Shown one piece after another: positions 38,164-62,583 of a stretch of 64,000 nucleotides of DNA. The stretch is from Patescibacteria group bacterium. GTDB taxonomy: Bacteria; Patescibacteriota; Patescibacteriia; UBA9934. Position 1 is the stretch's first letter. Every line of letters starts with the position of its first letter. The translations under genes and the position numbers were made by a program. Under the pieces are notes generated by a model. The model saw only the letters and a list, made by a program, of their open reading frames with translations. It did no database searches and had not been told where the DNA came from. Location: positions 10,446 through 74,445 of the forward strand of contig JBAZUI010000003.1 of NCBI GenBank assembly GCA_041661425.1, given 5' to 3'.

Positions 38164-38164
38164 A

Positions 38165-42697: not shown

Positions 42698-42808
42698 TTT
42701 TTTGGATCAAGGATAAACTCGATGAGATGTTGGCGCGTGGGGAAGCAAGCCTCCGAGACGTACACATTGTACGAAGAGGAGGTTGCGGGGCCCCACAAAC
42801 CAACAGAT
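42698..42808 (-). ncRNA. Copy A of a ~106-nt structured intergenic element (infC-rpmI spacer)
   Basis: Reverse complement aligns with copies at 53364 and 62466. Ends are conserved and internal helices carry compensatory changes. Confidence 0.55.
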
Positions 42809-42827
42809 CGCGAGTTTATCATTGATC

Positions 42828-43379
42828 TTATGAATTTTTAGCAACGATCATATTCATACGCCCTTCCATCTTCGAAATCGGCGATTCAATGCGAACGTCC
42901 ATTTCTTCACGGATGGAATCAAGGAAGGTGTGCATAATATCCTCGGCACGTTCGGCATAGGCCTTTTCACGGCCTCGTAAAATTAACTCAATACGAATTT
43001 TATCACCTTGCTCCAAGAATTTGACTGCTTGATTTTTGCGAATTTCCAAATCACCCTGACCAATGCGTAGCGAAAGCCGAATCCCTTTCACATCAACTTC
43101 CTTACTCTGGGCGCGCTGTTTGCGCATTTCTTTTTCCTTTTGATATTTAAACGCGCCATAATCCATCAATCGGCAAACTGGTGGCACGGCTTTTGGCGAG
43201 ACTTCAATCAAATCAAGTCCAGCTTCCTCGGCGCGAGCCAAAGCCGCAGGGACGGTAAGAACTTCATTTGCTCCGGCATCATCAATTAATCGTATTTCCG
43301 GTGCAATAATTTTTTCATTCACCCGATACTGGGGAATGTTGAACTTTGGTTTAAAATGGCGGTGTCTGTGAATGCGCAT
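42828..43379 (-). CDS. infC: Translation initiation factor IF-3
   Basis: Classic IF3 N- and C-domains. Probable non-ATG start as usual for infC. Confidence 0.9.
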   Translation of the reverse strand: MRIHRHRHFKPKFNIPQYRVNEKIIAPEIRLIDDAGANEVLTVPAALARAEEAGLDLIEVSPKAVPPVCRLMDYGAFKYQKEKEMRKQRAQSKEVDVKGIRLSLRIGQGDLEIRKNQAVKFLEQGDKIRIELILRGREKAYAERAEDIMHTFLDSIREEMDVRIESPISKMEGRMNMIVAKNS

Positions 43380-43637
43380 GGGTGATGGATATTTGTTTCA
43401 AAATTTGTGGCAAATTTTCGTCATTCTGAGGCCAACCTGTCCTTCGAAGCCCAAAGGGCGAAGGAGGAAGGCCGAATGAATCTCTTGAGCGATTATTAAG
43501 AGATCCTTCGCTTTGCTCAGGATGACGGCGGGGGACTGAGTCCTCCTACGCTCCTCGGCATCGCTTCGGAGCTTCGGAGGACAACCTTCGCTTCAGCTGG
43601 CAGGGTGGCCTGCCAACCGTAGCTTCAGCGAAGCTGA
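43380..43637 (-). promoter_or_regulatory. Highly structured leader upstream of infC-rpmI-rplT (candidate L20-type autoregulatory leader and/or repeat-derived)
   Basis: CGTCATTCTGAGG pairs with CTCAGGATGACGG ~130 nt away with a G-U. Several nested hairpins. Shares the CGTCATTGCGAG motif family. Confidence 0.35.
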
Positions 43638-44039
43638 AGCGAAGGTTGGTGGACCTGGGGAGAATTGAACTCCCGTCTGGTCAGTAAATCCTTCACAATT
43701 GTTTTACAAGTTTTGCTCTACTTAATTTGCGTCCAGGGGATCGAAGCAGAGCGAAAATCCCAAGGAACGTTCTGATGGGCCATAGAATGCTTTTCGTCCA
43801 TCAGGAAGCGAAGGCATCCACCTTTGGTTATGACACTCGATCTGATTCTTAAGGTTCAAATCAGGGAGCGGGCGGTCACCTAATTAGGCGACGGCCATGG
43901 CAAGGGAAGGCATGCGGAACATGTCTTTCACCTTTGTGACAACATTGGCATGTGTCGATTGCGCATAGCTATGACGGGAGATGCGCCTCCCGACTTGATT
44001 GGGAAGGGTTAAACTCTGCCATCGATTCCTGGCAGGCCC
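43638..44039 (-). ncRNA. ssrA: tmRNA (ssrA)
   Basis: Minus-strand 5' end GGGCCUGCCAGGAAUCGAUGGCAG matches tmRNA 5' consensus GGGGCUGAUUCUGGAUUCGACGGG. 3' end GGACGGGAGUUCAAUUCUCCCCAGGUCCACCA is a tRNA-Ala-like T-arm/acceptor/CCA. G3:U70 pair. Just downstream of smpB. Confidence 0.75.
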
Positions 44040-44060
44040 ACGTTAGGACTTCCGCCTTTA

Positions 44061-44175
44061 GCGCATAGCTTTGTCAAAAACCTCCGCACTTCGTCACCGT
44101 ACGCATTGGTACGGCTCCTCGTTGCTCGGTTTTTTCCTCGCTCTGCATCTAAAGGCGAAAGTCCTAAAAGTTCTC
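44061..44175 (+). repeat. Copy 1 of a ~115-bp conserved intergenic element (second copy at 46938-47043)
   Basis: Shared ends GCGCATARCTTTGTCRAAA ... CTCGYTCTGCATCYAAA..CTAAAAGTTCT. Internal hairpin covaries (CCGTAC/GTACGG vs CGGAC/GTCCG). Confidence 0.5.
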
Positions 44176-44178
44176 ATT

Positions 44179-44658
44179 TTATTTAAAGCGCGTTTTTTTG
44201 AGCTCCTCGCGCATCTGCTTTTCAATTGAGCGTTTCTTGAGGCTTTCGCGTTTTTCGTACTTCTTTTTTCCACGTCCAACGCCAAACTCAAGTTTCACTA
44301 AATCGCCCTTAGTATAGACAGAAATTGGGAGAATCGTCAACCCATCAGCCTGTTTTTTTCCAATGAGGGTATTGATTTCATTGCGGTGCACCAGCACCTT
44401 GCGATCGTGCGTGGGATCATAATCTTTTTGCTCACCCGCTGGCGCGTATTTTCCAATGTGCATGTTCTTGAGAAAGAGCTGATTATTTTGGATCGTTAAA
44501 AATGCTCCTTTCAGATTGATGCTCCCGCGTTTTGCCGCTTTTACTTCCGCACCACTCAAAACCAGTCCGCCCTCGTATTTTGAGAGGATGTCATAATCGA
44601 ATCTGGCACGTTTGTTGACAGCGAGTGTTGGCACAAGAATTTTATGATACAATAACAT
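44179..44658 (-). CDS. smpB: SsrA-binding protein SmpB
   Basis: RARFDYDILSKYEGGLVLSGAEVK... Confidence 0.9.
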   Translation of the reverse strand: MLLYHKILVPTLAVNKRARFDYDILSKYEGGLVLSGAEVKAAKRGSINLKGAFLTIQNNQLFLKNMHIGKYAPAGEQKDYDPTHDRKVLVHRNEINTLIGKKQADGLTILPISVYTKGDLVKLEFGVGRGKKKYEKRESLKKRSIEKQMREELKKTRFK

Positions 44659-44663
44659 AAACT

Positions 44664-45746
44664 ATGACCGTTAAAAAGGAGGACGCGTCCGTGAAGCGCG
44701 CAATAAGCGTTTCCATTACCCCGGGAACGATTCTGACGATTTTTGCGATTGGGTGTTTGGCAGCGCTTGTCTTTTATTTGCGGAATTTGATTCCGGTTTT
44801 TTTGGCAGCGCTTTATATTGCCGCGCTTGTGAACCCGTATGCAAATTGGGGCGCGCGTCTTCATTTACCAAAAGGAGTTTCGGTTGGGATTCTCTACATT
44901 GTGGGACTGCTTTTTATTTGCGGAGTCCTGATTCTTATTCTTCCAACGCTTGTGGGGCAGGTTCAAGAAGCATTTACAAATTACCCCGGGATCATTACGG
45001 GTTTCTTTGGGAATGATCCATTGGTACGCGCCATGATCAATGGCACATGGTTCGATCTCAATCTTGAACAAATGATTATCTCCGTCCAACATTCCGGCGT
45101 GCAAGAAAGCCTGCCACAGATTGTGACCGCGATCACCAATGCATTTTCGGGAATTGTGACGGGGTTGCTTGTTTTGATTCTTGCGTTTTATCTTGTGGTC
45201 GATGGATCGTCCATTCGCGGAAGTCTCCATCTTATTATGCCGTCGTCTGCAAAACGTTTTGTGCTCGAAGTGCTTCCGATTGTCAAAACGAAAATCAGTT
45301 TGTGGTTGCGCGGTCAGCTGATCATCATGATCACGATGTTTACGATTACCTATATTTCTCTTTCGATTCTTGGGGTGCCGTATGCCTTACTCCTCGCTCT
45401 TCTCACCGGGCTTTTGGAAATCATTCCATTTCTTGGACCGATTATTGCGGCGGTTCCATCCATTATTCTCGCTTTTACGGTCTCGCCTGTCATGGCAGTG
45501 CTCGTGGCTATTCTCTATTTTGTGATGGAACAACTTGAAGGTGATTTACTCACACCAAAGATCATGCAACAGACGATCGGCTTGCATCCGATTGTCACGA
45601 TTGGCTCTTTGCTTGTAGGGTATGAAATAGGGGGTGTTGTGGGAGCGCTCTTGGCCGTGCCAACCGCAATGGTCGTGAGTGTTTCCTTGCACGAGTGGCA
45701 TCACTTAACATCAAAAAAGAAAACGTATGCACGAACAACATCTTAG
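44664..45746 (+). CDS. AI-2E family transporter (PerM/YhhT-like)
   Basis: 8 TM, LLTGLLEIIPFLGPIIAAVP signature. Confidence 0.75.
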   Translation: MTVKKEDASVKRAISVSITPGTILTIFAIGCLAALVFYLRNLIPVFLAALYIAALVNPYANWGARLHLPKGVSVGILYIVGLLFICGVLILILPTLVGQVQEAFTNYPGIITGFFGNDPLVRAMINGTWFDLNLEQMIISVQHSGVQESLPQIVTAITNAFSGIVTGLLVLILAFYLVVDGSSIRGSLHLIMPSSAKRFVLEVLPIVKTKISLWLRGQLIIMITMFTITYISLSILGVPYALLLALLTGLLEIIPFLGPIIAAVPSIILAFTVSPVMAVLVAILYFVMEQLEGDLLTPKIMQQTIGLHPIVTIGSLLVGYEIGGVVGALLAVPTAMVVSVSLHEWHHLTSKKKTYARTTS

Positions 45747-46113
45747 AGTCTGGCTGCCGTTTTTGGGCATTGGATTGATTCTGGGCGCCACGGTTATTGT
45801 CGCCAGTTGGATGATGCTTGCGGAAGGCGGAAAAGCACAAGATTCGCCGATCGCGCAAGTGGAAACTAGCGAAGCGCCATCGCCCGAAGTTTACGAGAAG
45901 CAAATACATGACATGATCGGCATGGTTGATGTTTGGAGTGCGAATGAGATGTATGGAATTTTATTGAGTATGCGCGTGCCGTCAGATTATCGCGAGTTCC
46001 ACTTCGCGCTCGTGCAAGCGCTTGAAGATTTACGCGACGGGAAAGTCGAAGAAGGGAAGTCGGCGATCGAAGCGTTAAAAGTCGTCTATCCTTGGCTTGC
46101 GAATCTTCCGTAA
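45727..46113 (+). CDS. Hypothetical membrane-anchored protein
   Basis: ORF with N-terminal TM, in operon position. Confidence 0.4.
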   Translation: MHEQHLRVWLPFLGIGLILGATVIVASWMMLAEGGKAQDSPIAQVETSEAPSPEVYEKQIHDMIGMVDVWSANEMYGILLSMRVPSDYREFHFALVQALEDLRDGKVEEGKSAIEALKVVYPWLANLP

Positions 46114-46916
46114 TGTCACTTCCCATGATTTTACTTCACCGTATCACGTCATTCTTCGTTTCGGCTCTGGCGGCCGGGGGATATTATTTTTTGATTTTTC
46201 ATCCGTTCGTCGAGGGATCCTCTATCGATCGCGTGACCGCATTGATCGCCATGGGAAGTGTCGCACTTCTTTCAGCTTTGCTCCTTTCGCGATTGCTCAA
46301 ATGGGAAGTCACCTCATTTTCTTTTTGGATTTTTTTGAGCGTTCCCATGTTTGTGATCATTTCGTCATTTTGCCTTTATCTTTTTCTTGAGATTCTTGCA
46401 CTGAAGATTATTCTTGCGCTCATGGTGAGTCTAGCGCTCTGGCTGTATACGGAAAATCTTTTTGCGTTTTATCATCTGCCCGCCGCCTATCAAGCCTATG
46501 CCTTGGAATATCTTTCCGTGATTCTTTATTTGCTTTCTTGTTTTTTCTTTGCGAGCAGTGCGTATGGCGCGCAAATGTTTTTGCAATATCCCATTTGGAT
46601 GCTCTCCATTGCGATGTTCTGGGTGGTTATTCTTGCGACGGCGGGAGTCTTTTGGGTGAGCAAAGTCGATTCCGAAACGAGTATGCTCTATGCCATTGTT
46701 GGTGCCATTATGCTCACGGAAGGGTATGTCGTCATCGGGTTGCTTCCAACAAGTTTTCTTACGAACGGAGCGGCGTTTACGGTGCTTCTGTATTTATTCT
46801 TCGGACTTTCGCGTGCGCATGTGCTCGAAAAGCTCACGCGTCCGGTGGCCTCACGCTATCTTGGGATCGCCGGAGCGTTTATGGTATTGGTTTTTTTAAC
46901 CGCAAGATGGTTTTAA
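46092..46916 (+). CDS. Hypothetical polytopic membrane protein (8 TM)
   Basis: Continuous hydrophobic ORF. Confidence 0.45.
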   Translation: MACESSVMSLPMILLHRITSFFVSALAAGGYYFLIFHPFVEGSSIDRVTALIAMGSVALLSALLLSRLLKWEVTSFSFWIFLSVPMFVIISSFCLYLFLEILALKIILALMVSLALWLYTENLFAFYHLPAAYQAYALEYLSVILYLLSCFFFASSAYGAQMFLQYPIWMLSIAMFWVVILATAGVFWVSKVDSETSMLYAIVGAIMLTEGYVVIGLLPTSFLTNGAAFTVLLYLFFGLSRAHVLEKLTRPVASRYLGIAGAFMVLVFLTARWF

Positions 46917-46937
46917 TATGCAGGACTTTTGTCTTTG

Positions 46938-47043
46938 GCGCATAACTTTGTCGAAACCTTCGTTTTTCGTTCAACGGACATCTGGGTCCGTCTCACGAAA
47001 AGCCTTTGTTTCTCCTCGTTCTGCATCCAAATCTAAAAGTTCT
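46938..47043 (+). repeat. Copy 2 of the ~115-bp conserved intergenic element
   Basis: See copy 1 at 44061-44175. Confidence 0.5.
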
Positions 47044-47059
47044 TTTTCACATAAGTATG

Positions 47060-48157
47060 TTTGAACATCGAAAAAAAGAATTCTTCTGGCAAGTTGCTTT
47101 CACGGCTTTTATTTTTTCCGTGATTGCCGGAGCGGCCTCGGGATTGATTGCCGCGGTGCTCGCAAATCAATCTCTTGATCATTATTATCAAACCTTGCTC
47201 GAGGAACAAGAATTCGCCGCCATCTCACAGGTGCGACCCGAAGCCATCCCGGGAACCTATGAAGAGGCACTCTCTGTGGTACATACAAATCTCTCCAAAA
47301 CAATTGGATTCGTTCATGCAAAATCAACGGATGCTTCGACTGTTTCCGGTTTGCAAATTGCCGATGGATATACCGGAGCCTGTGCGATTATTACAAACGA
47401 TGGATGGATGGCCTGCTACGAAGATGTTTTTGAGAATTTTTATACACCGATTTCTCAAGCGGAAATGTGGATTGAGGGAAGTCGTTATGCCATCACGTCT
47501 ATGGTTGCGGATTCGCTTTCCGATTTGGTGATGGTGAAAATCGAGGCAACCAATCTTTCCTCGGTCGCATTTGGTGATGCCGCGGGAACGAACGAGGGGA
47601 CCATGCTTTTTGCCGCCACGCAACCGGAGGAGATTTTTGTAACAAGTTTTTCCGGGAACCCCATGATCGCATCCAAGGTTGCTCTGCCTGATGTTCAATT
47701 TGTAAATGGCTGGTCGCTTTCCACCGGGCTTCCTGCAAGCGCACCGCTTTTTAATTCCTCTGGCAAACTCGTGGCATTGGGAAGTGGCAGTGAAGCCATT
47801 TCCTTAACCGTGGCTTGGTCGGCCATCGAATCAACCATTGCCAAAGGTGAGATTTCACATGCGTCCATGGGGGTGACTGTCATTTCTATCCCGGATATGC
47901 TCAATGCTTCTGCAACGGCATTTCCGGAACAGGGAGCGTTGATTACCGCGATTGCCGTGGATTCTCCGGCTGAGCTTTCCGGATTTTTGGTGGGGGACGT
48001 GATTCTTTCCATTGGAGGAACATCAATTGAAAAAACAAATCTTGCCGAGGTTCTTGCGGGTTATGAAGTGGGAGATGTCGCGAATGTTGAATTCTCCCGC
48101 GAGGGGGAGATTCAAAAAGTGGATGTGGCATTCGGTTCCTCTGAAATGATTTTCTAG
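47060..48157 (+). CDS. HtrA-like trypsin-fold protein with C-terminal PDZ domain, probable pseudoprotease
   Basis: Trypsin-fold layout with DLVMVKIE. Expected GNSGGPL is replaced by LPASAPL (Ser to Ala) and the His region is altered. PDZ GALITAIAVDSPAE...GDVILSIGG. Confidence 0.5.
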   Translation, partial: FEHRKKEFFWQVAFTAFIFSVIAGAASGLIAAVLANQSLDHYYQTLLEEQEFAAISQVRPEAIPGTYEEALSVVHTNLSKTIGFVHAKSTDASTVSGLQIADGYTGACAIITNDGWMACYEDVFENFYTPISQAEMWIEGSRYAITSMVADSLSDLVMVKIEATNLSSVAFGDAAGTNEGTMLFAATQPEEIFVTSFSGNPMIASKVALPDVQFVNGWSLSTGLPASAPLFNSSGKLVALGSGSEAISLTVAWSAIESTIAKGEISHASMGVTVISIPDMLNASATAFPEQGALITAIAVDSPAELSGFLVGDVILSIGGTSIEKTNLAEVLAGYEVGDVANVEFSREGEIQKVDVAFGSSEMIF

Positions 48158-48158
48158 T

Positions 48159-48755
48159 ATGCCGAATTGGGGGAAGATCATCCGTTCATGGCCGAGCGAA
48201 CGGATGCTTGTTTTTACAACAGTGATTGGCGCGCTTTTTTGCCTCGGTCTTTTTTTCTTGCATGACCATGAATCTGCCTCGAAACTCACCATCCGTTTCT
48301 CGAGAGATGTGGGAAGTGAAGATGTATTTGGAAATCGATTGGATTTTTTATCCATGATCAATGAGATGGATGGGGTGATAGGGAACGAAGATTTTTTTGA
48401 TGAGATGGTGAGGCAGTATCCGGATATCGATGAGAATTATTTTTTAACGCAGGATTGGGAGCGGACAATCGTCTGGCGTATCTCTCCAGGGAAGAATGAT
48501 TTACATCTCACGATTTATCACGAGGATCAAACACAAGGTGCGTTGATAGCGAATGCGGTTGCGATGTTAGTAAAAGATCAGATGGATGAAGGATGGATCG
48601 TGACTGTTTCCGAGGAAGTTGAAACAAGCATCATGAGTGCGCGACCGAATGTATTGGTTTTTGTTTTTTGTGGGGCGATGTATGGATTTTTATTTGGGGT
48701 GAGTTTTGTGGTGATTGAGAAAGGAACAAAAAAACGCCGACATGAGATTACGTGA
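48159..48755 (+). CDS. Hypothetical bitopic protein (TM at both ends; Wzz/PCP-like topology)
   Basis: ORF overlaps the previous stop. Topology only. Confidence 0.35.
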   Translation: MPNWGKIIRSWPSERMLVFTTVIGALFCLGLFFLHDHESASKLTIRFSRDVGSEDVFGNRLDFLSMINEMDGVIGNEDFFDEMVRQYPDIDENYFLTQDWERTIVWRISPGKNDLHLTIYHEDQTQGALIANAVAMLVKDQMDEGWIVTVSEEVETSIMSARPNVLVFVFCGAMYGFLFGVSFVVIEKGTKKRRHEIT

Positions 48756-48759
48756 CGAA

Positions 48760-49140
48760 TCGCGACCACCCCTCACCCCTCCTTTGAAAGGAGGGGTCTC
48801 CTTCTGGAGCCTCCCCCTTAAGCAAGGGGGAGTAAAGAGGGGGTTATGAAAACCGTGGGGCGACCGGCCGGTCGCCCATAGTAAGCGAAGTGTATGGGGG
48901 TGTAAATTCGATTTTCTTGACACCGGTTTTCTCCTCTGTTAGGTTTGAACCATGAAGCCCCTTGGAAGGGCTCGGTGGAACGGTCGTGACGCCTCCTCCT
49001 CGTCGCGATTCGTCCCCGCCGAGCCTTTCGAGGGGGTTTTTGTTTTTGGGCAGGTCGCAGACCCGCCCGTACGGCGTGATGTAGGGGCATGGCATGCCAT
49101 GCCCATACGCCAAAGCGCGTTTTTTTGCTCATTTTACCCA
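48760..49140. repeat. BIME-like cluster of GC-rich palindromic units
   Basis: CCCCTCCTTTGAAAGGAGGGG, CTCCCCCTTAAGCAAGGGGGAG, GGGCGACCGGCCGGTCGCCC, GGGCAGGTCGCAGACCCGCCC, GGCATGGCATGCCATGCC in series. Confidence 0.6.
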
Positions 49141-49415
49141 TAAAACCCACCAAACCCCTTGACAATCAGCTGGTTTTTTGATATTGTTACGGGTCCGTAA
49201 AAACGGGCGTGACCTTTAAAAAGGCTGGTTTCTGGCCTTCTCTGATTCGGTGTCCGACAACCTACCCTCCTAGGATGTTGTTGACGCCGGGTCATAGAAG
49301 GCTCAGAAGTCAGAAAATGAGCCCCCGCACCCCCGTGCGGGGGGCATAAGCCACAAAACCCCGCCCGTCCTCCCCAGAAAGGAGGCTCCGGGCAAAAACC
49401 AAAAGGAGGGTCACC

Positions 49416-50396
49416 ATGACCCTGTCCCTCGCTCTGTCCCTCGCCCTGTCCCTCGCCACCCCGGCCCTGGCCCAGGACCTCCCGTCCTGCCCGGCTGGCC
49501 ACCACCTCAAGCCCGCCGACGCCGAGTGTGTCGACGATGTGGTGGCGGCCCTGCCGCCGACGGCCGAGTCGGCACAGGCCGCGGCCGATGAGGCCAAGGC
49601 CCTGATCGCGGACCTGCAGCAGCAGGTCCGCGCCTACCGCATCACCCAGGCCACGGCCAACGCCCAGGCCAAGGCCGACCTCGAGCTCGTGATTGCGGGA
49701 CTCAAGTCCCGCATCGAAGAGCTTCAGGCCTTGGTGGCCCGGGGCAAGGCCGACCAGGCCGTGGTCGACGCCCGTCAGGATGACGTCACGGCCCAGGCCC
49801 AGGTCACGGCCAACGAGGCCAAGGCCGACGCGGCCAAGGCCAACAAGGCCGTGGGCGACGCCCGGTACGACATCGCCCAGCTCGGCATCCAGGCCGAGCT
49901 GCAGGAGGTGCGCCTCGGCCACGAAGAGGACGAGGAGGGCAGGATCGGCGCCCACGCGGGCGTCTGGGTCCAGTCCCACGGCGCAATCCCCGGGGTCGGC
50001 GACGAGCTGTCCGCGGGCGTGGTGGGAGGTCTCTCCTGGCGCGAGCGGACCTCTGCCGGCGAGACCTACGCCGACATCGGAGCCGTGCTCGGCTCCGACA
50101 ACATCCTCGGCGGTGCCGTGGAGCTTGGGCGGGTGTGGAACCTGCCCGTGGTCCCGATCGCCATCGGCATCGTGGCCGGGGCCGACGTCGTGGGCTACGA
50201 AGCCTACGATAGCAAGACCTCGTCCTCGTCACTGGGGATCGACGGCCTGGCCGGACCCGCCGTCACCGTCGATCTGGGCGGGGCGGAAGTCGATGTAGTA
50301 CCGGCGTTTTACGTCGGTACCATCCACAACCGGTTTGCCGTCCCGGACAACACGCTCCGGTCCGGCTTCGTCGGCTCGGTGAAGGTGCGGTTCTAG
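49416..50396 (+). CDS. High-GC island 2 secreted protein: signal peptide, Ala-rich coiled coil, beta-rich C-terminus ending in Phe (OMP-like)
   Basis: MTLSLALSLALSLATPALAQ signal. GC3 >85%. Terminal ...VKVRF. Confidence 0.55.
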   Translation: MTLSLALSLALSLATPALAQDLPSCPAGHHLKPADAECVDDVVAALPPTAESAQAAADEAKALIADLQQQVRAYRITQATANAQAKADLELVIAGLKSRIEELQALVARGKADQAVVDARQDDVTAQAQVTANEAKADAAKANKAVGDARYDIAQLGIQAELQEVRLGHEEDEEGRIGAHAGVWVQSHGAIPGVGDELSAGVVGGLSWRERTSAGETYADIGAVLGSDNILGGAVELGRVWNLPVVPIAIGIVAGADVVGYEAYDSKTSSSSLGIDGLAGPAVTVDLGGAEVDVVPAFYVGTIHNRFAVPDNTLRSGFVGSVKVRF

Positions 50397-50810
50397 AGCG
50401 CAACGCTCGAACCGCCGCCCTCACCAACTACGTGTTCGCGGGGATTAATCAAGTGCACTGCACAAGATTCTTCCCCGCGGATGCAACTTATCAAGAATTG
50501 TTACGGATGCTCTTCTAGTGTGAAGAACAGCCATAAGACTTCTTGAAAATTGAGGAAGTCAAGAACATTCAAATCGAAAATACAACGAACATCTGCGATG
50601 GTGCCGTCCACATGAGTGCTGATTAGCACTGAAGGATTGCCGACTAGACTAAATGGTTCCAAAGAAATTTTTGGCACTCATGAGTCGTCGCCATGGCAGA
50701 TGTTCGAAAGCTGCCTCCGCCCGCCCTTGGGGCGGCGGCAAAGTTTCCGCTCGCGACCCATCCCGGGTCTACGAGCAAGTGTCTAAACCTAGAAGTCCTT
50801 GGAGGACACC

Positions 50811-52016
50811 ATGATCCGATTCGCCCTGCTCCTCGCCGCCCTCGCCCTCTCCGCCTGCACCGGGGACCTTTTTGTCCCCGACAAGGCCGACGACGACGGC
50901 GACACCGACACCCCCACCGACGTCGACACCGACGGCGACGGGTACGACACCGACGTCGACTGCAACGACCACTCGGCCAGCGTCCACCCGGGCGCCACCG
51001 AGCTCTGCAACAACGTCGACGATGACTGCGACGGGTACGTCGACGAGGGCCTGGACTGCAACGACGCCGTCGACGCCGCCGGCGATGGCTATGCCTACGC
51101 CGACGACTGCGACGACTCCGACGTTTCCGTCCACCCCGGCGCCACCGAGACCTGCAACGGCATCGACGACGACTGCGACGACGACGTCGACGAAGGCATC
51201 GATTGCGATGCCGACGACGATGACGACGGCTACAGCGCCGCCGACGACTGCGACGACACCGACGCCTCCGTCCACCCCGGCGCGACCGAGACCTGCAACG
51301 AGGTCGACGACGACTGCGACAACGAGGTCGACGAGGACGTGACCGATACCTACTACCTCGACGACGACGGCGACGAGTACGGCGACCCCGACCACTCGGT
51401 CGAGGCCTGCGACGCGCCCGCCGGCTACGTCGACAACGACGACGACTGCGACGATGACGACGACGACGTCTACCCCGCCGCCGACGAGGACTGCAACGAC
51501 GGCGTCGACAACGACTGCGACGGCGACGAGGACGACGACGATGATGACTGCGATAGCGGCATCGTCTGCGATCCGGACGACAGCGACGACGTGGCCGACG
51601 GCTGCGTCGAAGTCTGCTGGTACCCCGACCCGGGGTCCGGCGCTGGCAACGACGTCGACGCCACGGTCTACGACCTGTGGTTCGGCGTCGAGACCATCGC
51701 CTCCGACGACACCATCGACCTCGTCGTGGTCGACTCCGGTTCGGCGTCGGGCATCTGCGTCGGCCTCTATGAGGACGACCTGGACGAGCTCCGCGTGAAC
51801 GTGGGGTTCGAGTTCGACGACGACGACTGGTCGGTCGACGGGGCATGGGACTCCGATTCCGATGATTTGGACGAGTGGTGGGCCTGCTCCACCTACTCGA
51901 CCGAAAACGGCGGGTTCTGGGGCCAGTTCACGGTCGACGGCGACACTGCCGACGACGTGGACGCCATCGACAACCCGGAGGAATCCGGGTACGACTGCCA
52001 GCTGAACAGCTGGTAG
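50811..52016 (+). CDS. High-GC island 2 lipoprotein with tandem MopE-type putative metal-binding repeats
   Basis: RBS GGAGGA precedes the ATG. Lipobox LALSAC. Four or more repeats DCDD.D.SVHPGATE.CNG.DDDCDG.VDEG. Asp-rich. Confidence 0.65.
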   Translation: MIRFALLLAALALSACTGDLFVPDKADDDGDTDTPTDVDTDGDGYDTDVDCNDHSASVHPGATELCNNVDDDCDGYVDEGLDCNDAVDAAGDGYAYADDCDDSDVSVHPGATETCNGIDDDCDDDVDEGIDCDADDDDDGYSAADDCDDTDASVHPGATETCNEVDDDCDNEVDEDVTDTYYLDDDGDEYGDPDHSVEACDAPAGYVDNDDDCDDDDDDVYPAADEDCNDGVDNDCDGDEDDDDDDCDSGIVCDPDDSDDVADGCVEVCWYPDPGSGAGNDVDATVYDLWFGVETIASDDTIDLVVVDSGSASGICVGLYEDDLDELRVNVGFEFDDDDWSVDGAWDSDSDDLDEWWACSTYSTENGGFWGQFTVDGDTADDVDAIDNPEESGYDCQLNSW

Positions 52017-52287: not shown

Positions 52288-52292
52288 AGAAG

Positions 52293-52354
52293 GGCGGGTC
52301 ACAGACCCGCCCGTACGTAAATCAATTCTGTAGGGGCAGGTCTGTGACCTGCCC
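52293..52354. repeat. Two head-to-head REP-like palindromes GGGC(G/A)GGTCACAGACC(C/T)GCCC
   Basis: Separated by GTACGTAAATCAATTCTGTA. Same family at 37246, 38243, 42024, 49048, 54261. Confidence 0.7.
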
Positions 52355-52510: not shown

Positions 52511-53350
52511 ATGACCCACATCCCATCCATGCTCGATATGCTCAAGGCCGGCGTCCACTTTGGACATCGCACCAGCCGTTGGCATCCTAAAATGAAGTCC
52601 TATATTTTCGGCGCTCGCGGAGGCGTTCACGTCATTGACATCGAACAGACCCGCGCTCGTTTGGAAAAAATTCTGACGGATATTGAAAAGATGATTGCCG
52701 ACGGTGGCGTGATCATGTTCATTGGCACCAAAAAGCAAGTGCAGGATTTGGTCGCAAAGTACGCCAATGAATGCAATATGCCTTATGTCAACACGCGTTG
52801 GCTTGGAGGAACATTCACGAATTTTCCGGAAATCCATAAGCTTATTAAAAAGTATTTGGACCTCAAGGATAAACGTGTAAAAGGGGAACTCAAAAAATAT
52901 ACCAAGCTCGAACAATTGCAGTTTGATCGCAAAATTGAAGATCTTGATGGCCAAATCGGCGGAATCTCCATTCTCAAAGATTTACCAGATGCGGTATTCG
53001 TGCTTGATATGCGTCACGATAAAACAGCAGTGACCGAAGCGCGTTTGCGTGGCATCAAGGTGATTGGAATCTGCGACACCAATGTCAATCCGGAAATGGC
53101 CGATGAAGTTATTCCAGCCAATGATGATTCTGTTGCTTCTGTCACGATGATCACAAAATTGATTACCGAAGCCGTTCACGGCGGAAAGAGCAATGCCAAA
53201 AAAGCGATTGAACGTCGCGAGGCAGAACGCAAGGCCCGTGAAGAAGAATTGGCCGTGACCGCGGCTTCAAAAGCAACGGTCGAAGTGCTCGATGATGAAA
53301 TCAAAGAGAAACTCGCAAACGAAAAAATCGCTCAATTAAAAACGAAATAA
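52511..53350 (+). CDS. rpsB: 30S ribosomal protein S2
   Basis: LKAGVHFGHRTSRWHPKM... Confidence 0.95.
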   Translation: MTHIPSMLDMLKAGVHFGHRTSRWHPKMKSYIFGARGGVHVIDIEQTRARLEKILTDIEKMIADGGVIMFIGTKKQVQDLVAKYANECNMPYVNTRWLGGTFTNFPEIHKLIKKYLDLKDKRVKGELKKYTKLEQLQFDRKIEDLDGQIGGISILKDLPDAVFVLDMRHDKTAVTEARLRGIKVIGICDTNVNPEMADEVIPANDDSVASVTMITKLITEAVHGGKSNAKKAIERREAERKAREEELAVTAASKATVEVLDDEIKEKLANEKIAQLKTK

Positions 53351-53363
53351 TTAGAGACCTTGC

Positions 53364-53469
53364 AAAACTCGCGATCTGTTGGCTTGCGGGGCCCTGCCAT
53401 CTCCTCAACGTACACTCTGGTACGTCTCGGAGACTGGCTGTCCCGCGCACCAACATCTCATCGAGTTTT
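53364..53469 (+). ncRNA. Copy B of the ~106-nt structured intergenic element (rpsB-tsf spacer)
   Basis: AAACTCGCGATCTGTTGG...CCAACATCTCATCGAGTTT outer helix plus three inner helices. Confidence 0.55.
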
Positions 53470-53499
53470 GCGAAGGTCCAAGTATAATTCTATTTTTCT

Positions 53500-54099
53500 A
53501 TGGACATAAAAGCAGGGGATGTCCTTCAATTGCGACAAAAAACCGGCGTCGGCATGATGGAGGCAAAAAAAGCTCTTACCGAGGCCGAGGGTAATATCGA
53601 AAAAGCCATTGAATGTCTCAGAAAATCCGGAGCCGCAAAAGCTCAAAAACGTGCAGAACGCACAACCGCGCAAGGACGTGTGGAATGTTATTCCCATGCC
53701 GGCGGAAAAATTGGTGTGCTCGTGGAAGTGCAATGCGAAACGGATTTTGTGGCACTCAATGATCAATTCATTGAATTTTGTCATGATCTTGCTTTGCACG
53801 TTGCCGCTTCCAGTCCACTTTATGTAAACCGTGAAGATGTGCCGGAAGAGATGATCGCAAAGGAAAAGGAAATCATTCGTGAGCAAATTGCTGCTGAGGG
53901 TGGCAATAAGCCGGCAGAAATTGTTGAAAAGATTGTGGAAGGAAAGATCGCCAAGTATTTGCAAGATATTGTGTTGATGGACCAGACATTTATCAAAGAT
54001 GAGGATGTGACCATTCGAGCCTTGCTCGAATCGAAGATTCTCTCCATCGGGGAAAATATTCGCATCGCCCGCATTGCGCGATTACAAATTGGGGAATAG
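53500..54099 (+). CDS. tsf: Elongation factor Ts
   Basis: LRQKTGVGMMEAKKALTEAEGNIEKAIE UBA-like N-terminus. Confidence 0.9.
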   Translation: MDIKAGDVLQLRQKTGVGMMEAKKALTEAEGNIEKAIECLRKSGAAKAQKRAERTTAQGRVECYSHAGGKIGVLVEVQCETDFVALNDQFIEFCHDLALHVAASSPLYVNREDVPEEMIAKEKEIIREQIAAEGGNKPAEIVEKIVEGKIAKYLQDIVLMDQTFIKDEDVTIRALLESKILSIGENIRIARIARLQIGE

Positions 54100-54103
54100 C
54101 GGC

Positions 54104-54229
54104 GCCGTCATTGCGCCTGTCCGCCGAAGAAGACGAAGGCGGAAGGACGACCAACCTATTTTCCCTGCCGTCATTGCGAGGACGACCAAAGGGAGGACGA
54201 AGCAATCTGTTCGAATAGATTGCTTCGTC
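54104..54229. repeat. Right arm of inverted repeat flanking rpsB-tsf
   Basis: See 52192-52287. Carries two CGTCATTGCG(C/A) units. Confidence 0.7.
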
Positions 54230-54289
54230 GGCCATGAGGCCTTCTCGCAATGACGTGAGAGGGCGGGTCAAAAGACCTGCTCTTTTCGA

Positions 54290-54410
54290 TTTGTCATAGG
54301 GGCGACCGTTTGTTCATGCTATTCATAACCCCCTCTTTACTCCCCCTTGTTTAAGGGGGAGGCTCATAGAGTTCCCCCTCCTTTCAAAGGAGGGGGAAGG
54401 GGTGGTTCCC
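54290..54410. repeat. BIME-like palindrome cluster, inverted relative to 48760-49140
   Basis: CTCCCCCTTGTTTAAGGGGGAG and CCCCCTCCTTTCAAAGGAGGGGG. Confidence 0.6.
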
Positions 54411-54451
54411 GAATGCGATATGATATAATCATCTATATCGTTCGGAGGAAT

Positions 54452-55453: not shown

Positions 55454-55456
55454 CGC

Positions 55457-59145: not shown

Positions 59146-59172
59146 TGCGAGCCTAAAAGGCGAAGCAATCTA

Positions 59173-60063
59173 TTGATGAATTATTTTTATTCACAAGGGA
59201 CTCTTGGAATCGATGCTAAATTGTGTAATATGAGTTCATACACTCCCCATAATTTTTTTATGCTTACCAAAAATGATATAAAATTATTTCGTGGGGTGAT
59301 TCGCGAAGAGTTTCAAGCTGATACATTCAAGGATGGTGTGCGTGAGGTTCTTCATGATGAAATCCGTGGAGAATTTCAGGGTGATGCGTTTAAAGATGGC
59401 GTGCGAGAGATTCTCCATAACGAGATTGGCGAGGAATTTCAGGGTGAAACATTTAAGGACAGTATCCGTGAGGTTGTGAATCATGAAATTTGCGAAGAAT
59501 TTCAAGGTGAGACGTTCAAAAATAGCATCCGGGACGTCATCGACCATGAGATTCGTGGAGAGCTTCAGGGCGAAGCATTCAAGAACAGTATGCGGGAGGT
59601 TGTGAATAACGAGCTCCGTGGAGAACTCGGAGGTGAGACCTTTAAGGATAGTATTCGTGAGGCTGTGAATCATGAGATTCGTGGAGAGCTTCAGGGCGAA
59701 GCATTCAAGAACAGTATGCGGGGGGTTGTGAATAACGAGATTCACGAGGAGCTTCAGGCTGATTCGTTTAAGAATAGTGTGCGCGAAATTGTTAACGATG
59801 AGGTTGGTGAAGTTCTTGAGAATATCGTTGTCCCACAATTTGATGGCATCTATCGTGAAATGGACGAAATAAAGAGCAAAATAAGTGTTTTAGAGGACAC
59901 GGTGGTCACAAAAGACTATTTGGATGAAAGACTTATAAATTTTAAGGAAGAATTGAACCTCCCGGCGGTATGGGTCGCGAAGCAAGTCGAGCGACTTTCA
60001 CATATGCTCTATAAAGGAGGAATTTTAACTGCTGAACAGGTCGTAGAGATCAGGACGGAATAA
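59173..60063 (+). CDS. Hypothetical protein made of ten tandem 20-residue repeats (consensus IRGELQGEAFKNSMREVVNHE)
   Basis: 60-bp DNA periodicity from 59290 to 59830. Two 68-bp stretches are near-identical. Start codon choice is uncertain. Confidence 0.5.
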   Translation: MMNYFYSQGTLGIDAKLCNMSSYTPHNFFMLTKNDIKLFRGVIREEFQADTFKDGVREVLHDEIRGEFQGDAFKDGVREILHNEIGEEFQGETFKDSIREVVNHEICEEFQGETFKNSIRDVIDHEIRGELQGEAFKNSMREVVNNELRGELGGETFKDSIREAVNHEIRGELQGEAFKNSMRGVVNNEIHEELQADSFKNSVREIVNDEVGEVLENIVVPQFDGIYREMDEIKSKISVLEDTVVTKDYLDERLINFKEELNLPAVWVAKQVERLSHMLYKGGILTAEQVVEIRTE

Positions 60064-60509
60064 GGATCTCTCTTTTTGCACAAATCAATCGCTATACAAC
60101 TCGACCAGACGCCATTCAAGAGTCTCGGAATCCAGTCGGAGTTTCATGAAATTGGTGTTATCGGAGACAGAAAAATAGAAAATTCTCTTTTGACCTTCGC
60201 GTGTGCTGTGAACGAGATTGAGCTGTTGGAGTGCATAGGTGTGCTGGCCCCAACGGACATGCGTTGGGCGCACGCGATTTTGTGCAAATTGAACGAGGAC
60301 GTCCACAGGGTCATTGAGAATTTCATGCATATTAAGAAAGGTGAAGGGTGTGGAGCAGGCGATGAATTTGTTGCTTAAAACGACGACGACTCACACGAAC
60401 CCGAAGGTGTTTTTGCCAATTGCGAAGAGTACGATCTTCGGCAAGTGTGTAGCCGAGTGTAATTTTGTAGTATCGAAGTGCTGTTTCTGACATAAAAAAA
60501 TTATTTAGG

Positions 60510-60550
60510 AATAAAAAGCGACGCTGGAGGAGGAGACCAGCGTCGCGTTA
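60510..60550 (-). terminator. Rho-independent terminator downstream of lexA
   Basis: GCGACGCTGG-n-CCAGCGTCGC 10-bp stem followed by a T-run on the minus strand. Confidence 0.6.
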
Positions 60551-60672
60551 TGTTCTAGATATAATCCAGAACACTGACTATGGAGGCCGGATCCCTTCGG
60601 CTTCCTCGCCAGAGCAAATGCTAGGATCGTATGCATTTTGCTCTAACGAAGAGTGATTTGGGATCCGGACAA

Positions 60673-61299
60673 TTATGAATGAAATTTTCTAATCACGGCT
60701 CGAACGACTCCTTGGATATTGATGTCGCCTTTGATGATAATCGGTTGCATGGTGCTATTGGCCGGTTGTAAACGAATGTGTTTTCCTTCTCGATAGAAGC
60801 GTTTGAGTGTGGCATAGGCATTGTCGAGCAGGGCCACGACGATATCACCATTTTTTGGTGAAGGATTTCTTTCGATGACCACATAGTCTCCATCAAAGAT
60901 GCCATCTTCGATCATGGACCGACCCTTTACGCGAAGCACATAGGAGTTTCCTGGATTCACGACGAAATCCGTTGGGACGGCGATGGCTTCATTTTCTTCA
61001 ACGGCTTCGATTGGTTCGCCAGCTGTGATGAGTCCGGCAAGTGGAAGAATGATACTCATGGACGAAAGTTCTGTAACCTCGGTGAGTTCAATGGATCGTG
61101 CCGCGCCATCTTCGCCTGTATTGATGACGCCCTTTTCGCAAAGCGCTTGAACATGTTCGTGCACGGTCGACGGAGAGGCGAGCCCCATGGATTTTGCGAT
61201 CTCGCGATAAGAGGGGGTATAGCCATGTTCGCGAATGAATTGCTCGATGCAATTCAGAACTTCGCGTTGCTTTTTTGTAAGAGGCGGGAGTGATGTCAT
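60673..61299 (-). CDS. lexA: LexA repressor (S24 peptidase)
   Basis: Start at MTSLPPLTKKQREVL. wHTH. Cleavage/catalytic motifs GRSM and KRF. Confidence 0.85.
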   Translation of the reverse strand: MTSLPPLTKKQREVLNCIEQFIREHGYTPSYREIAKSMGLASPSTVHEHVQALCEKGVINTGEDGAARSIELTEVTELSSMSIILPLAGLITAGEPIEAVEENEAIAVPTDFVVNPGNSYVLRVKGRSMIEDGIFDGDYVVIERNPSPKNGDIVVALLDNAYATLKRFYREGKHIRLQPANSTMQPIIIKGDINIQGVVRAVIRKFHS

Positions 61300-61301
61300 A
61301 T

Positions 61302-61345
61302 CGTTCGCTTTCTGTTCCCATTTTGACCCGAACAGAAAACGAACG
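61302..61345. promoter_or_regulatory. Candidate LexA operator: inverted pair of GTTC-N7-GTTC / GAAC-N7-GAAC boxes between lexA and the divergent gene
   Basis: CGTTCGCTTTCTGTTC-12 bp-GAACAGAAAACGAACG. 16-bp arms are reverse complements except one base. Confidence 0.5.
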
Positions 61346-61419
61346 CAAGAGCGGGTGTGGATATCTTTTCTTTTTTGCGTGAATGTCATTATTATGTTAA
61401 TTTGTGTCCTCGATCGCCT

Positions 61420-62457
61420 ATGAAAAAAACCGTTGAAATTCCACTGCCAGGGCATCCCGATAAGGTCTGCGATCTTATTGTTGATTCGATTTTGGATGAA
61501 TATCTTCGCCGTGATGCAAAAAGTCTTGTTGATATCCAGGCTTTGGGGTCGCATGGCATGCTCATGATTGGCGGCACGGTTGAATCTCAAGCGGATTTTG
61601 ATTGCGGAGAATTGGCAAAATCAGTGTATGCGCGCCTTGGGTATGAGGATCAAATTGAACCATTCGTGAACATCAAAAGCACAGGACATCCGGAAGAAAA
61701 AAACGATGCTCACAGCGTAAGTCACGGCACCTCGATTGTGCATGGGTATGCCAGCCGTGAGACGCGTGAAATGCTTCCGCGCGTATTGGTTTACGCAAAT
61801 GCTTTAGCGCAACGCATTGATGATTTACGTCGAACCTCAGAACATTTCCATTGGATGAATCCGGACGGCAAAGTCCAGCTCACGATGGACGGTCATAAAT
61901 TTACGAGTGTGGTCGCCCATGTCCAGCATAAAAAAGAAATGGATGTCGCCCGCGTTCAGCAAGCCCTTCTGGAGCAGGTGATTATTCCCGTCTTGGGAAC
62001 GGACGAAGGAGTAAAAATTTTTGTGAATACGGCCGGGAAATTTTTCGTGGGTGGATTTGAAGGGAGCTCCGGCGCTTCGGGACGCCGATTACTTTCCGAT
62101 ACCTATGGAAGCCTTCTTCCAAGTGGCGGCGCTTATATGGCGGGTCGTGATCCGAGCCATCCCAGCCGTGCCGGAGCCTATATGGCTCGATATGTTGCAA
62201 AGAATTTGGTTCACGAAGGAGTGGCGGGAAATATTTTTCTCACGGTTGCTTACACCATTGGACAGGCAGAACCGATTTACATTGAGGCGCGATCTGGCGA
62301 TGGCAAAGATCTTTCCGAGATAGTGAAAAAACGATTTGATTTTCGTCCGGATGCGATTGTCGAGCGCTTGCATTTGCGTGAACCGTTGTATGCGCGCGTG
62401 GTGGCGTTTGGCCAGTTTGGGCGAGTTGGAATGCCGTGGGAAGCACTTGAGGAATAG
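61420..62457 (+). CDS. metK: S-adenosylmethionine synthetase-like protein (divergent MetK)
   Basis: GHPDKVCD N-terminal motif is conserved. The GGGAFSGKD loop is degenerate (GGAYMAGRD). Confidence 0.5.
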   Translation: MKKTVEIPLPGHPDKVCDLIVDSILDEYLRRDAKSLVDIQALGSHGMLMIGGTVESQADFDCGELAKSVYARLGYEDQIEPFVNIKSTGHPEEKNDAHSVSHGTSIVHGYASRETREMLPRVLVYANALAQRIDDLRRTSEHFHWMNPDGKVQLTMDGHKFTSVVAHVQHKKEMDVARVQQALLEQVIIPVLGTDEGVKIFVNTAGKFFVGGFEGSSGASGRRLLSDTYGSLLPSGGAYMAGRDPSHPSRAGAYMARYVAKNLVHEGVAGNIFLTVAYTIGQAEPIYIEARSGDGKDLSEIVKKRFDFRPDAIVERLHLREPLYARVVAFGQFGRVGMPWEALEE

Positions 62458-62465
62458 ACTGCTCC

Positions 62466-62583
62466 AAAACTCGCGATCTGTTGGCTTGCGGGGCCCTGCC
62501 ATCTCCTCATCGTACCTATCCGGTACGTCTCGGAGACTGGCTGTCCCGCGCACCAACATCTCATCGAGTTTTGAAGCAGTCCA
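62466..62583 (+). ncRNA. Copy C of the ~106-nt structured intergenic element
   Basis: Identical to copy B except the apical hairpin (CGTACC-tatcc-GGTACG vs ACGTAC-actctg-GTACGT). Confidence 0.55.

Follow-up and report, generated by a model that had tools for sequence, protein, structure and literature searches.

Palindromic intergenic repeats that fold as RNA are already a well-known kind of bacterial element. Among them, the ERIC elements are imperfect palindromes of ~127 bp that lie in transcribed intergenic regions in either orientation and whose presence varies between related species; the ERIC RNA hairpin affects mRNA decay in an orientation-dependent manner, and compensatory changes have been reported in it. 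Here we analysed a hairpin repeat that recurs in a stretch of 64,000 nucleotides from a Patescibacteria group bacterium (GenBank assembly GCA_041661425.1, contig JBAZUI010000003.1, positions 10,446 to 74,445 of the forward strand; hereafter the window) and of which we collected 34 distinct copies from at least 15 Patescibacteria assemblies or metagenome contigs. We lean towards the view that the window copies are a non-autonomous, non-coding palindromic interspersed repeat of Patescibacteria, of the RPE/ERIC/Correia kind, in which one strand, here called the R strand, would be the propagated form and which would act as a hairpin at transcript boundaries.

The Rickettsia palindromic elements (RPEs), like the elements studied here, are palindromic hairpin repeats of ~100–150 bp that occur in many dispersed copies in a reduced genome and have no known transposase. 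RPEs often lie in frame in protein-coding genes, whereas 0/34 copies do so here, and we know of no report of a fixed RPE polarity to gene ends or of a preference for stable-RNA termini. One of the 526 RPEs in Rickettsia bellii is located inside the tmRNA gene (PMC1458961), and the copy L039:3331-3469 of our collection (L numbers denote loci fetched from other genomes and metagenomes) is likewise an insertion in a tmRNA gene. The ERIC and IRU elements of Enterobacteria and Yersinia differ from the present family in that they belong to another phylum and have no evident sequence similarity to it. Moreover, no ERIC copies that abut tRNA or rRNA termini are known to us. With the RPE/ERIC type the family has in common the single long imperfect hairpin, the occurrence of both orientations between genes and the one copy inside a tmRNA gene, and it is filed with these elements as the same kind by description, the class being a functional one and not a homology family.

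The model for the transcript-boundary role proposed here is provided by the Correia elements of Neisseria. These carry 26-bp terminal inverted repeats and a TA target duplication, whereas the elements studied here are least conserved at their termini and showed no duplication. Correia elements are small, have inverted ends and are transcribed together with adjacent genes; they are able to create promoters and to bind IHF, and RNase III can cut or protect their RNA hairpins (PMC2649163). The REP/REPIN-RAYT systems and the PATEs of IS200/IS605 are strand-specific imperfect hairpins that are read single-stranded, leave no target duplication and form inverted pairs (on these systems see PMC2817692, PMC3116915). 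The present elements share with REPs the strand-specific imperfect hairpin, the lack of a target duplication and the inverted pairs, but REPs are 20–40 nt long, have a conserved 5' tetranucleotide and flank a RAYT gene, whereas here there is a single hairpin of ~125 nt; unlike in REPINs, the inverted pairs enclose a tRNA. Neither a Y1 transposase domain nor a RAYT was found among the window proteins. Classical MITEs (miniature inverted-repeat transposable elements) are, as this family is, small, non-coding, dispersed and present or absent between related genomes. The conserved terminal inverted repeats that MITEs, which are moved by a DDE transposase, share with an autonomous insertion sequence were not found, the outermost 8–12 bp being the most variable part of the element and its conservation residing in an internal core, and no target-site duplication was seen in four comparisons of filled with empty sites.

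The searchable literature yielded no description of these hairpins, and the family is apparently undescribed so far. Its Patescibacteria host, its internal conserved core, a very strong purine-mismatch strand bias that is independent of host transcription and a fixed polarity to gene ends with about half of the copies on stable-RNA termini go beyond what we found described for repeats of this kind.

Five copies in the window and their relatives

A preliminary description of this DNA, made from its letters, had reported three similar copies of the element, with spans 42698-42808, 53364-53469 and 62466-62583. The three are real and can be aligned over ~105 nt. The 18-mer AAACTCGCGATCTGTTGG occurs in the window at exactly three sites, 42800-42817(-), 53365-53382 and 62467-62484, and so does the 19-mer CCAACATCTCATCGAGTTT, at 42715-42733(-), 53450-53468 and 62553-62571, compared with 0.03–0.07 matches to these arms in shuffled sequence. 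While the sites are right, the true spans are longer, and the span first given for copy A cuts its 5' helix. The search with a covariance model that had been asked for added to the count: a model built from 23 copies and run on the window and the fetched loci revealed two extra, diverged copies in the window (D and E) and eleven more in the fetched loci. The window therefore holds five copies, with the following positions and neighbours.

Copy A, subfamily 1: 42705..42827, R strand on +; full hairpin of 123 nt, covariance model score 113 bits.
Neighbours of copy A: infC 42828-43379 (-) and rpmI 42456-42656 (-); the infC stop codon directly adjoins the R 3' end.
Copy B, subfamily 1: 53356..53478, R strand on -; hairpin of 123 nt, covariance model score 113 bits.
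Neighbours of copy B: rpsB 52511-53350 (+) and tsf 53500-54099 (+); 5 nt separate the R 3' end and the rpsB stop codon.
Core of copy B, 5' half: 53371..53382 (+); GCGATCTGTTGG on +, which is the 3' half on the R strand, CCAACAGAUCGC.
Core of copy B, 3' half: 53450..53462 (+); CCAACATCTCATC on +, which is the 5' half on the R strand, GAUGAGAUGUUGG.
Copy C, subfamily 1: 62457..62581, R strand on -; hairpin of 125 nt.
Neighbours of copy C: metK 61357-62457 (+) and an open reading frame (ORF) at 62620-63366 (+); the G of the metK TAG stop codon is the first paired base.
Copy D, subfamily 2: 44043..44167, R strand on -; core GAUGCAGAGCGAGG ... GACAAAGCUAUGCGC; 50.6 bits, E = 3e-10.
Neighbours of copy D: smpB 44179-44658 (-) and tmRNA 43647-44039 (-), in the same sense as the R strand of D; the tmRNA 5' end is 3 nt from the R 3' end.
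Copy E, subfamily 2: 46922..47043, R strand on -; 32.6 bits.
Neighbours of copy E: an ORF at 46092-46916 (+) and a PDZ-protein gene at 47057-48157 (+).

Copies B and C, which are separated by ~9 kb, are 93% identical and their differences are confined to the apical loop and the basal stem, while the identity of A and B is 79%. The products encoded on either side of copies A, B and C are IF3 and L35, S2 and EF-Ts, and S-adenosylmethionine synthetase and a protein of unknown function, respectively. Each of these three copies directly follows a stop codon and has promoter-like boxes downstream. Subfamily 2 consists of copies D and E together with a copy from a sister species, and its core differs from that of subfamily 1; both subfamilies contain the basal GAUG...CG-C and the apical GAG-(N)CGUAC...GUACG(N)-UGAG motifs. 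In the spacers at 42656-42700, 53479-53502 and 62582-62622, the boxes TATACT, TATAAT and TATAAT are located 5–10 nt before the ATG of rpmI, tsf and ORF 62620, respectively, and no Shine-Dalgarno sequence is present between the boxes and these start codons. The mRNAs of the three genes would be leaderless or nearly so.

Relatives were retrieved by a pattern scan with the exact core through 185,579 species genomes, one genome per species. The scan returned 51 loci, of which 13 were true relatives, and these were located in Patescibacteria metagenome-assembled genomes (MAGs; six loci in one MAG, several from Uhrbacteria) or in bins labelled Gammaproteobacteria. Ten further true matches, corresponding to seven distinct sequences, came from a scan of metagenomes. 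All relatives derive from Patescibacteria or from contigs that are unclassified or probably mis-binned. In particular, the 5S gene of L006 is 83–85% identical to Patescibacteria 5S, and the Gammaproteobacteria label of this bin is thus a probable binning error. No true match to either subfamily was present in viral contigs, and a viral origin was rejected on this basis. The sample is small, with ~15 source assemblies and 8–20 kb per fetched locus, and protein neighbours outside the window are plain ORF calls. Rfam 15 contains no family that reaches its gathering score at the copies, the ribosomal-leader families that the preliminary description had proposed to check included; the gathering-score matches in the window are tmRNA and tRNA only, and a search of copy B at E up to 10 gave only microRNA models at noise level.

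Fold, core and covariation

Folding showed that copies A–C each form one long imperfect hairpin with internal loops and not the branched, multi-helix element that had been drawn initially. On the strand read in the preliminary description, their folding energies range from -64 to -71 kcal/mol (z = -8.4 to -10.3), and their stems reach 8–10 bp further out, into a segment that differs from copy to copy. Across the family the hairpin is 122–140 nt long, or up to ~165 nt in two copies with nested insertions, with z values of -8 to -12. The nested insertions (L039:3062-3227, L044:7132-7295) are GC-rich segments of 30–40 nt in the 3' half of the copy and fold into small hairpins of the type CCCACC...GGTGGG.

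By R strand we mean the one opposite to that first described, written 5'-...AAAAnnnGAUGAGAUGUUGG...CCAACAGAUCGCnnnUUUU...-3'. On this strand the hairpin begins with a basal stem of ~10–14 bp that is free in sequence, followed by four or five A·U pairs and two or three free pairs. In the core, a G-C pair and a bulged A are followed by a U·G pair, then by G-C and A-U pairs, after which come a tandem G·A/A·G and 6–7 further pairs. Above the core, purine-rich internal loops and covarying helices lead to a second tandem G·A, and the apex consists of a 6–7-bp stem around GUAC that is closed by a loop of 5–8 nt. The core is invariant between genomes in which the inner helices have fully diverged. We considered a K-turn or box C/D core and rejected it, as pair 23/121, whose covariation is perfect, permits only the register with a single bulged A.

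In an alignment of 23 sequences the consensus hairpin contains 40 pairs, and 92.7% of the cells form standard pairs, compared with 36.5–41.9% in a control in which the partners were moved by 1–3 columns. Changes on both sides were found in 27 of the 40 pairs, and none of 500 column shuffles matched any of the observed measures. Inside the window the covariation rests on copy A versus copies B and C, because the latter two are 93% identical. The compensatory differences originally listed between the window copies are indeed present in the sequence, and the selection on structure that was deduced from them holds for the family as a whole, with strong covariation over 23–34 copies from many genomes.

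Strand asymmetry

The preliminary description had placed the selected structure on the strand that is sense for infC/rpmI, rpsB/tsf and metK. The opposite, R strand is the more stable one in 33 of the 34 copies, with a mean gain of 11 kcal/mol, and in copy D the values are -68.8 kcal/mol on R and -50.6 kcal/mol on the other strand. The imperfections of the hairpin are distributed in the same manner. When each copy was aligned to its own reverse complement and the non-Watson-Crick oppositions were read on R, we counted 260 G·A versus 15 C·T mismatches, and 121 G·T versus 55 A·C (p = 7e-7). The same R bias (36 versus 11 and 27 versus 4) is found in the copy-specific outer 16 positions.

The bias does not depend on which strand the host transcribes. 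For the 18 copies whose host transcript would carry the non-R strand, the counts are 67 G·T versus 25 A·C and 130 G·A versus 8 C·T, and the 11 copies in R sense relative to a stable RNA are similarly biased, with 34 G·T versus 20 A·C and 98 G·A versus 5 C·T. Such a bias has no reason in a palindrome of duplex DNA, which argues that one strand is selected as a single strand. As it is equal whatever the strand of the host transcript, the selected form would be a property of the element and not of the host mRNA; this independence sets the family apart from ERIC. The poorer, pyrimidine-mismatched version of the hairpin would be the one present in the host mRNA of copies A, B, C and E.

Position and polarity relative to genes

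Distances were scored to the nearest feature annotated by ARAGORN or Rfam or to ORFs of at least 100 aa. Of 30 copies, 26 have their nearest gene on the R 3' side (p = 6e-5), and the median distance to a gene end is 6 nt at the R 3' end and 102 nt at the R 5' end. Nineteen of the 34 copies lie inside or within 14 nt of a tRNA, tmRNA, 5S or 23S gene, whereas stable-RNA genes provide ~5% of the gene ends in a genome of such size. The features that are met by the R 3' end are listed below.

5' end of a same-strand tRNA: L001, L008, L044, L050, L052, L053, L062.
5' end of another same-strand stable RNA: tRNA pseudogene L043; 5S L006; tmRNA, window copy D.
3' end of an opposite-strand tRNA or tmRNA: tRNA L044, L052, L057; tmRNA L039.
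3' end of an opposite-strand 23S: L006, L009, L029, L047.
Stop codon of a protein gene on the opposite strand: copies A, B, C and E of the window; L039.

Both orientations relative to the neighbouring genes occur in the family. That the copies run in the sense of their flanking genes, as first reported, is true for A–C in the orientation used at the time and is not a property of the family. The element stands in non-R sense downstream of genes and in mRNA contexts, and R-sense copies occur only within stable RNAs or immediately upstream of them, L015 being the exception. R-sense copies upstream of tRNA, tmRNA and 5S genes leave a gap of 3–14 nt. L044 and L052 each have a tRNA with an R-sense copy upstream and a non-R-sense copy downstream, which together constitute an inverted pair. 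A copy in the 23S-5S spacer was found in at least three lineages, whose 5S genes are 83–91% identical.

Three further ideas were examined and rejected. A long processing stem in which the two copies that flank a tRNA pair with each other is not compatible with their membership of different subfamilies and their lack of mutual complementarity. Against an orientation linked to replication stand the inversion of copy A relative to copies B–E and the inverted pairs carried by tRNAs; the GC skew is positive over the whole window, and hence no origin is located at the gene-strand switch at 44.6 kb. For a promoter borne by the element there is little space, as the insert extends only 7–9 nt past the hairpin on the R 5' side, and the -10-like boxes are not at a fixed position.

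Several of the stable-RNA loci have features of their own. In L043 (3544-3640, 3689-3765) a truncated tRNA-Arg duplicate, which comprises the 5' part up to the T loop and carries a 42-nt GC-rich palindrome in its D loop, is situated between the hairpin element and an intact tRNA-Arg and resembles a rearrangement scar at a tRNA gene. The 23S genes at L009:1182-7243 and L047:3722-8000 are broken by several insertions, including group I introns (RF00028, 60–72 bits). Interrupted 23S genes are known for candidate phyla radiation (CPR) bacteria. In both loci the element follows the 23S 3' end, and a further L009 copy is located 94 nt upstream of the 23S gene.

Turnover in a sister species and mosaic copies

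The closest relative in the protein database is the sister-species locus L068, whose S2 protein is 88% identical to that of the window and which is syntenic with the window at ~42–54 kb. Four of the five window copies (A, B, D and E) are missing from it. The infC-rpmI spacer (copy A) measures 46 nt in the sister and 171 nt in the window, the rpsB-tsf spacer (copy B) 21 and 149 nt, and the ORF-PDZ spacer (copy E) 9 and 140 nt; the smpB-tmRNA spacer (copy D) is 39 nt in the sister, where it contains only a 32-nt hairpin, and 139 nt in the window. The reverse case is found immediately upstream of rpsB: here the sister carries a subfamily-2 copy, and the window reads ...AAAAGGAAAATTTCTATG and is free of the element. 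In each filled/empty comparison the two sites differ by the complete hairpin, basal stem included, together with 7–9 nt on the R 5' side. The 20-kb syntenic locus of a more distant Uhrbacteria genome contains no copies, and the more distant relatives of the rpsB-tsf spacer, L071 and L072, contain unrelated hairpins or none. Insertion of the element into existing terminator hairpins, which would have supplied the variable basal stem, was considered and rejected, since the empty sites of the sister hold no palindrome of that sort and the entire hairpin is the indel.

In addition, the copies are mosaic. Copies B and C have a common interior and different basal stems, and L001 and L044, which come from the same MAG, have a common basal stem and different interiors. 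These patterns would fit recombination between dispersed copies across the invariant core. Gain and loss, mosaics and nesting are marks of an interspersed repeat and not of a fixed regulatory site. Mobile spread, which had been played down, is favoured by the four of five sites that are empty in the sister, by the reciprocal sister copy and by the near-identity of B and C. The preliminary description had also held that a plain mobile element would reveal itself by random placement and target-site duplications, and neither was seen. Similar basal stems recur beside different tRNAs (L001/L044 and L008/L062). We asked whether the basal stem is copied from the target; the few resemblances found (CTTGA near A; GCAGTCC/GCTGTCC near C) are not to be trusted, because basal stems are clearly inherited within subfamilies (D/E/L068), and the idea was rejected.

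The tmRNA gene at L039:3225-3697 (-), which scores 160 bits, carries an insertion of 141 nt at the helix tip of its 3' domain. This insertion is a full R-sense copy of the element, at 3331-3469, and a second copy abuts the tmRNA 3' end. In the space between tmRNA and infC of the sister locus (L068:1040-1290, - strand) the unit CCATCCTAGCCACCTCTCAGGATTGGCGAAGGGTGCCCACCGTAGCTCTGTTTCACAGAGCGAAGGAGGGCGCGA occurs twice, ~160 nt from start to start.

Other repeats and features of the window

Besides the copies, the window contains type IV pilus genes, genes of lower glycolysis, FtsA/FtsZ and translation genes, an ordinary CPR set, and its S2 protein is 62–64% identical to named Uhrbacteria S2 proteins. 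A second repeat family, a 21-nt GC-rich perfect palindrome, is present at five intergenic sites, against a chance expectation of none. In appearance it is close to REP elements or short terminators, and two of its copies form a 60-nt hairpin upstream of rpsB. A direct repeat of 33 nt, 97% identical and 10.5 kb apart, holds the hairpin CCCCTCCTTTGAAAGGAGGGG, and one of its copies lies just after tRNA-Asp. Two islands of elevated GC content stand out from a genome of ~48% GC, and at 50.8–52.0 kb one of them encodes, on the + strand, an Asp/Cys-rich tandem-repeat protein whose sister homologue has a MopE copper-binding domain. Three ORFs, at 38430-40082(-), 40256-41782(-) and 49416-50396, had no match in Pfam. 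The positions of the other features are as follows.

Palindrome GGGCAGGTCTGTGACCTGCCC: 37245-37265, 42024-42044, 49048-49068, 52292-52312 and 52334-52354; variant at 38247-38268; also at ~9665 of L068.
33-nt direct repeat: 38204-38236 and 48765-48797.
Islands of 60–64% GC: 38000-42000 and 48000-52000.
Largest ORF in the window: 2530-12069, + strand, 3179 aa.

Discussion

From the anatomy of the hairpin, its covariation and strand asymmetry, its presence or absence in the sister species, its polarity and its association with stable RNAs we infer the following course of events. Each copy would be gained or lost as a whole hairpin, mobility being the cause of the turnover. The form that is recognised and propagated would be single-stranded R, as RNA or as single-stranded DNA, and the invariant core would be the binding site of a protein; recognition and propagation of this form through the core would be the reason why every copy is biased towards R regardless of its host context. 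Once inserted, the element would be co-transcribed with its neighbours and would act, or be tolerated, as a transcript-boundary hairpin, and copies would survive where the RNA hairpin is harmless or useful. In the non-R sense the hairpin, flush with the 3' end of a protein, tRNA, tmRNA or 23S gene and standing ahead of the promoter of the next gene, may be an obstacle to 3' exonucleases or cause partial termination of transcription. As an R-sense copy it would be a leader hairpin flush with the 5' end of a tRNA, tmRNA or 5S that is cut off by RNase P or another processing enzyme.

Several points weigh against this proposal. No target-site duplication or target consensus was found in the four filled/empty comparisons (infC-rpmI, rpsB-tsf, upstream of rpsB, and ORF-PDZ), where a duplication of 1–2 nt is still possible because the flanks are short and AT-rich. 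All empty sites come from one sister genome, and the turnover could in principle reflect repeated precise loss instead of gain. No transposase, reverse transcriptase, HUH enzyme or nuclease partner is encoded among the window proteins, the other loci not having been searched for one. The copies in the 23S-5S spacer could point to a conserved host function rather than to repeated insertion, and selfishness of the element alone does not account for the strict polarity and the flush junctions with mature RNA ends. Finally, most relatives were retrieved with the exact-core pattern, which fixes the TGTTGG/CCAACA columns, and the invariance of these columns is therefore partly due to the search. In the copies found only by the covariance model, the pattern-fixed positions vary and covary (GCGAC/GTCGC, GCTGG/CCAGC, TTTGT/ACGAA), while GAUGAGAU and its partner are nearly constant and GAUG and its partner CG-C are retained without the search pattern.

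The asymmetry and the flush R 3' ends are also what one would see if the R strand were the product, that is, if the element were a small RNA (sRNA) gene or a leader-derived sRNA with a promoter on its 5' side, released by RNase P from tRNA, tmRNA or 5S precursors and acting in cis or in trans through a dedicated protein that reads the core. The copies at protein genes would then be convergent sRNA genes that have a bidirectional hairpin in common with the upstream gene. This single idea covers the host-independent R bias, the fact that the spacer always precedes the R 5' end and the flush position of the R 3' end, and it agrees with a core that is invariant although the inner helices have completely diverged between genomes. 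Moreover, 11 R-sense copies are only 3–14 nt from a tRNA, tmRNA or 5S gene and leave no room for a promoter, so R RNA must be made whenever these genes are expressed. Boxes resembling -10 elements are present 2–25 nt upstream of the hairpin base in most R-sense copies, but at no fixed distance and in flanks that are AT-rich anyway, and promoter-like sites near the window copies are no commoner than in shuffled sequence. In the 23S-5S spacer an R transcript would have to start against rRNA transcription, and an essential RNA is hard to reconcile with the loss of four of five sites in the sister and the lack of any in the syntenic Uhrbacteria locus; we consider this explanation unlikely. The proposal of a propagated repeat could also be taken along a single-stranded DNA route, a variant of its mobility step in which a tyrosine HUH transposase, as in IS200/IS605-derived PATEs and REP/REPIN-RAYT, moves the palindrome by reading a bulged one-strand hairpin. 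The strand-specific imperfections, the missing target-site duplication, the inverted pairs of some copies and the resemblance of the core to a protein-recognition site would all be consistent with such a route. Known systems, however, use hairpins of 20–40 nt at or near the ends of the element and not a 125-nt hairpin that makes up the whole of it, and they predict an orientation set by the replication strand, whereas a single tRNA locus shows both orientations, and in the window, where the sign of the GC skew never changes, one copy in five is inverted. As no such enzyme is found among the window proteins either, we regard this route as quite improbable.

The explanation first given for the window copies was a host cis-regulatory, processing or stability RNA of translation operons that acts in the sense of the genes and is kept by selection. 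Its covariation is real, the neighbours (infC and rpmI, rpsB and tsf, smpB and tmRNA, tRNA, rRNA) are broadly related to translation, and the 23S-5S spacer copy is found in several lineages. However, the sense strand folds less well and is the one that bears the C·A and pyrimidine-pyrimidine mismatches, the sister species lacks the copies at these sites, and no ribosomal-protein leader family matches. A module for ribosomal-protein operons is too narrow a description for an element that also abuts tRNA, tmRNA, 5S, 23S, metK and PDZ-protein genes and that stands after metK and after a gene of unknown function, and we judge a host RNA of this type to be very improbable. Even less probable, in our estimation, is that the copies are ordinary intrinsic terminators, possibly bidirectional, that merely look alike. 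A-tracts and U-tracts flank the core on both strands, and copies are found directly after stop codons with promoters downstream, as terminators would be. Yet the genome has canonical terminators with short GC-rich stems and long U-tails, for example at 42093-42068 after rplT, a consensus scan does not call the elements, and a run of four U's is paired inside the stem. Convergence would, in addition, not be expected to give distant genomes the same 13 + 12 nt of core or to place copies upstream of tRNAs. Guide RNAs of a TIGR-Tas-like or other box C/D-like system, known from CPR bacteria, are suggested by the hairpin units, the tandem G·A pairs and the GAUG and CAGA motifs, which recall box C and box D. 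TIGR units have two unpaired spacers of 8–12 nt and form tandem arrays beside a Tas gene (PMC12045711), whereas the units studied here are paired throughout and dispersed, and the window lacks a Nop-domain gene. The covariation of columns 23 and 121 fixes a register that excludes a K-turn. Guide RNAs are effectively refuted by this anatomy, and their probability is close to nil.

Returning to the transposable hairpin, a bolder version of it, which we put forward tentatively as improbable yet deserving of attention, is that the R hairpin would be a discrete, Patescibacteria-specific RNA of ~130 nt, produced in quantity as the 5' leader of tRNA, tmRNA and 5S precursors, with a 3' end made by RNase P and a dedicated protein that reads the bulged A, U·G pair and tandem G·A of its core. 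Such an RNA would be either the propagating form of an RNA-borne mobile hairpin that rides on the promoters of stable RNAs or a domesticated transposable signal that sets processing and transcript boundaries of stable RNAs and translation genes. If true, either form would be a kind of element not described in bacteria.

The repeat also has practical consequences. It breaks short-read assemblies, and the Logan contig of the same sample appears to begin at about copy C; in addition, it can create spurious ORFs, such as those at 42622-42822 and 53379-53594. CPR bacteria account for a large share of bacterial diversity, their genomes of ~1 Mb are dense and thought to be repeat-poor, and the organisation and processing of their RNA are almost wholly obscure. 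As a repeat of ~125 nt fills much of several spacers, it must affect the start, end or maturation of transcripts there. The host-independent asymmetry, moreover, provides a testable handle on the form and the enzyme by which palindromic repeats of the RPE/ERIC type move.

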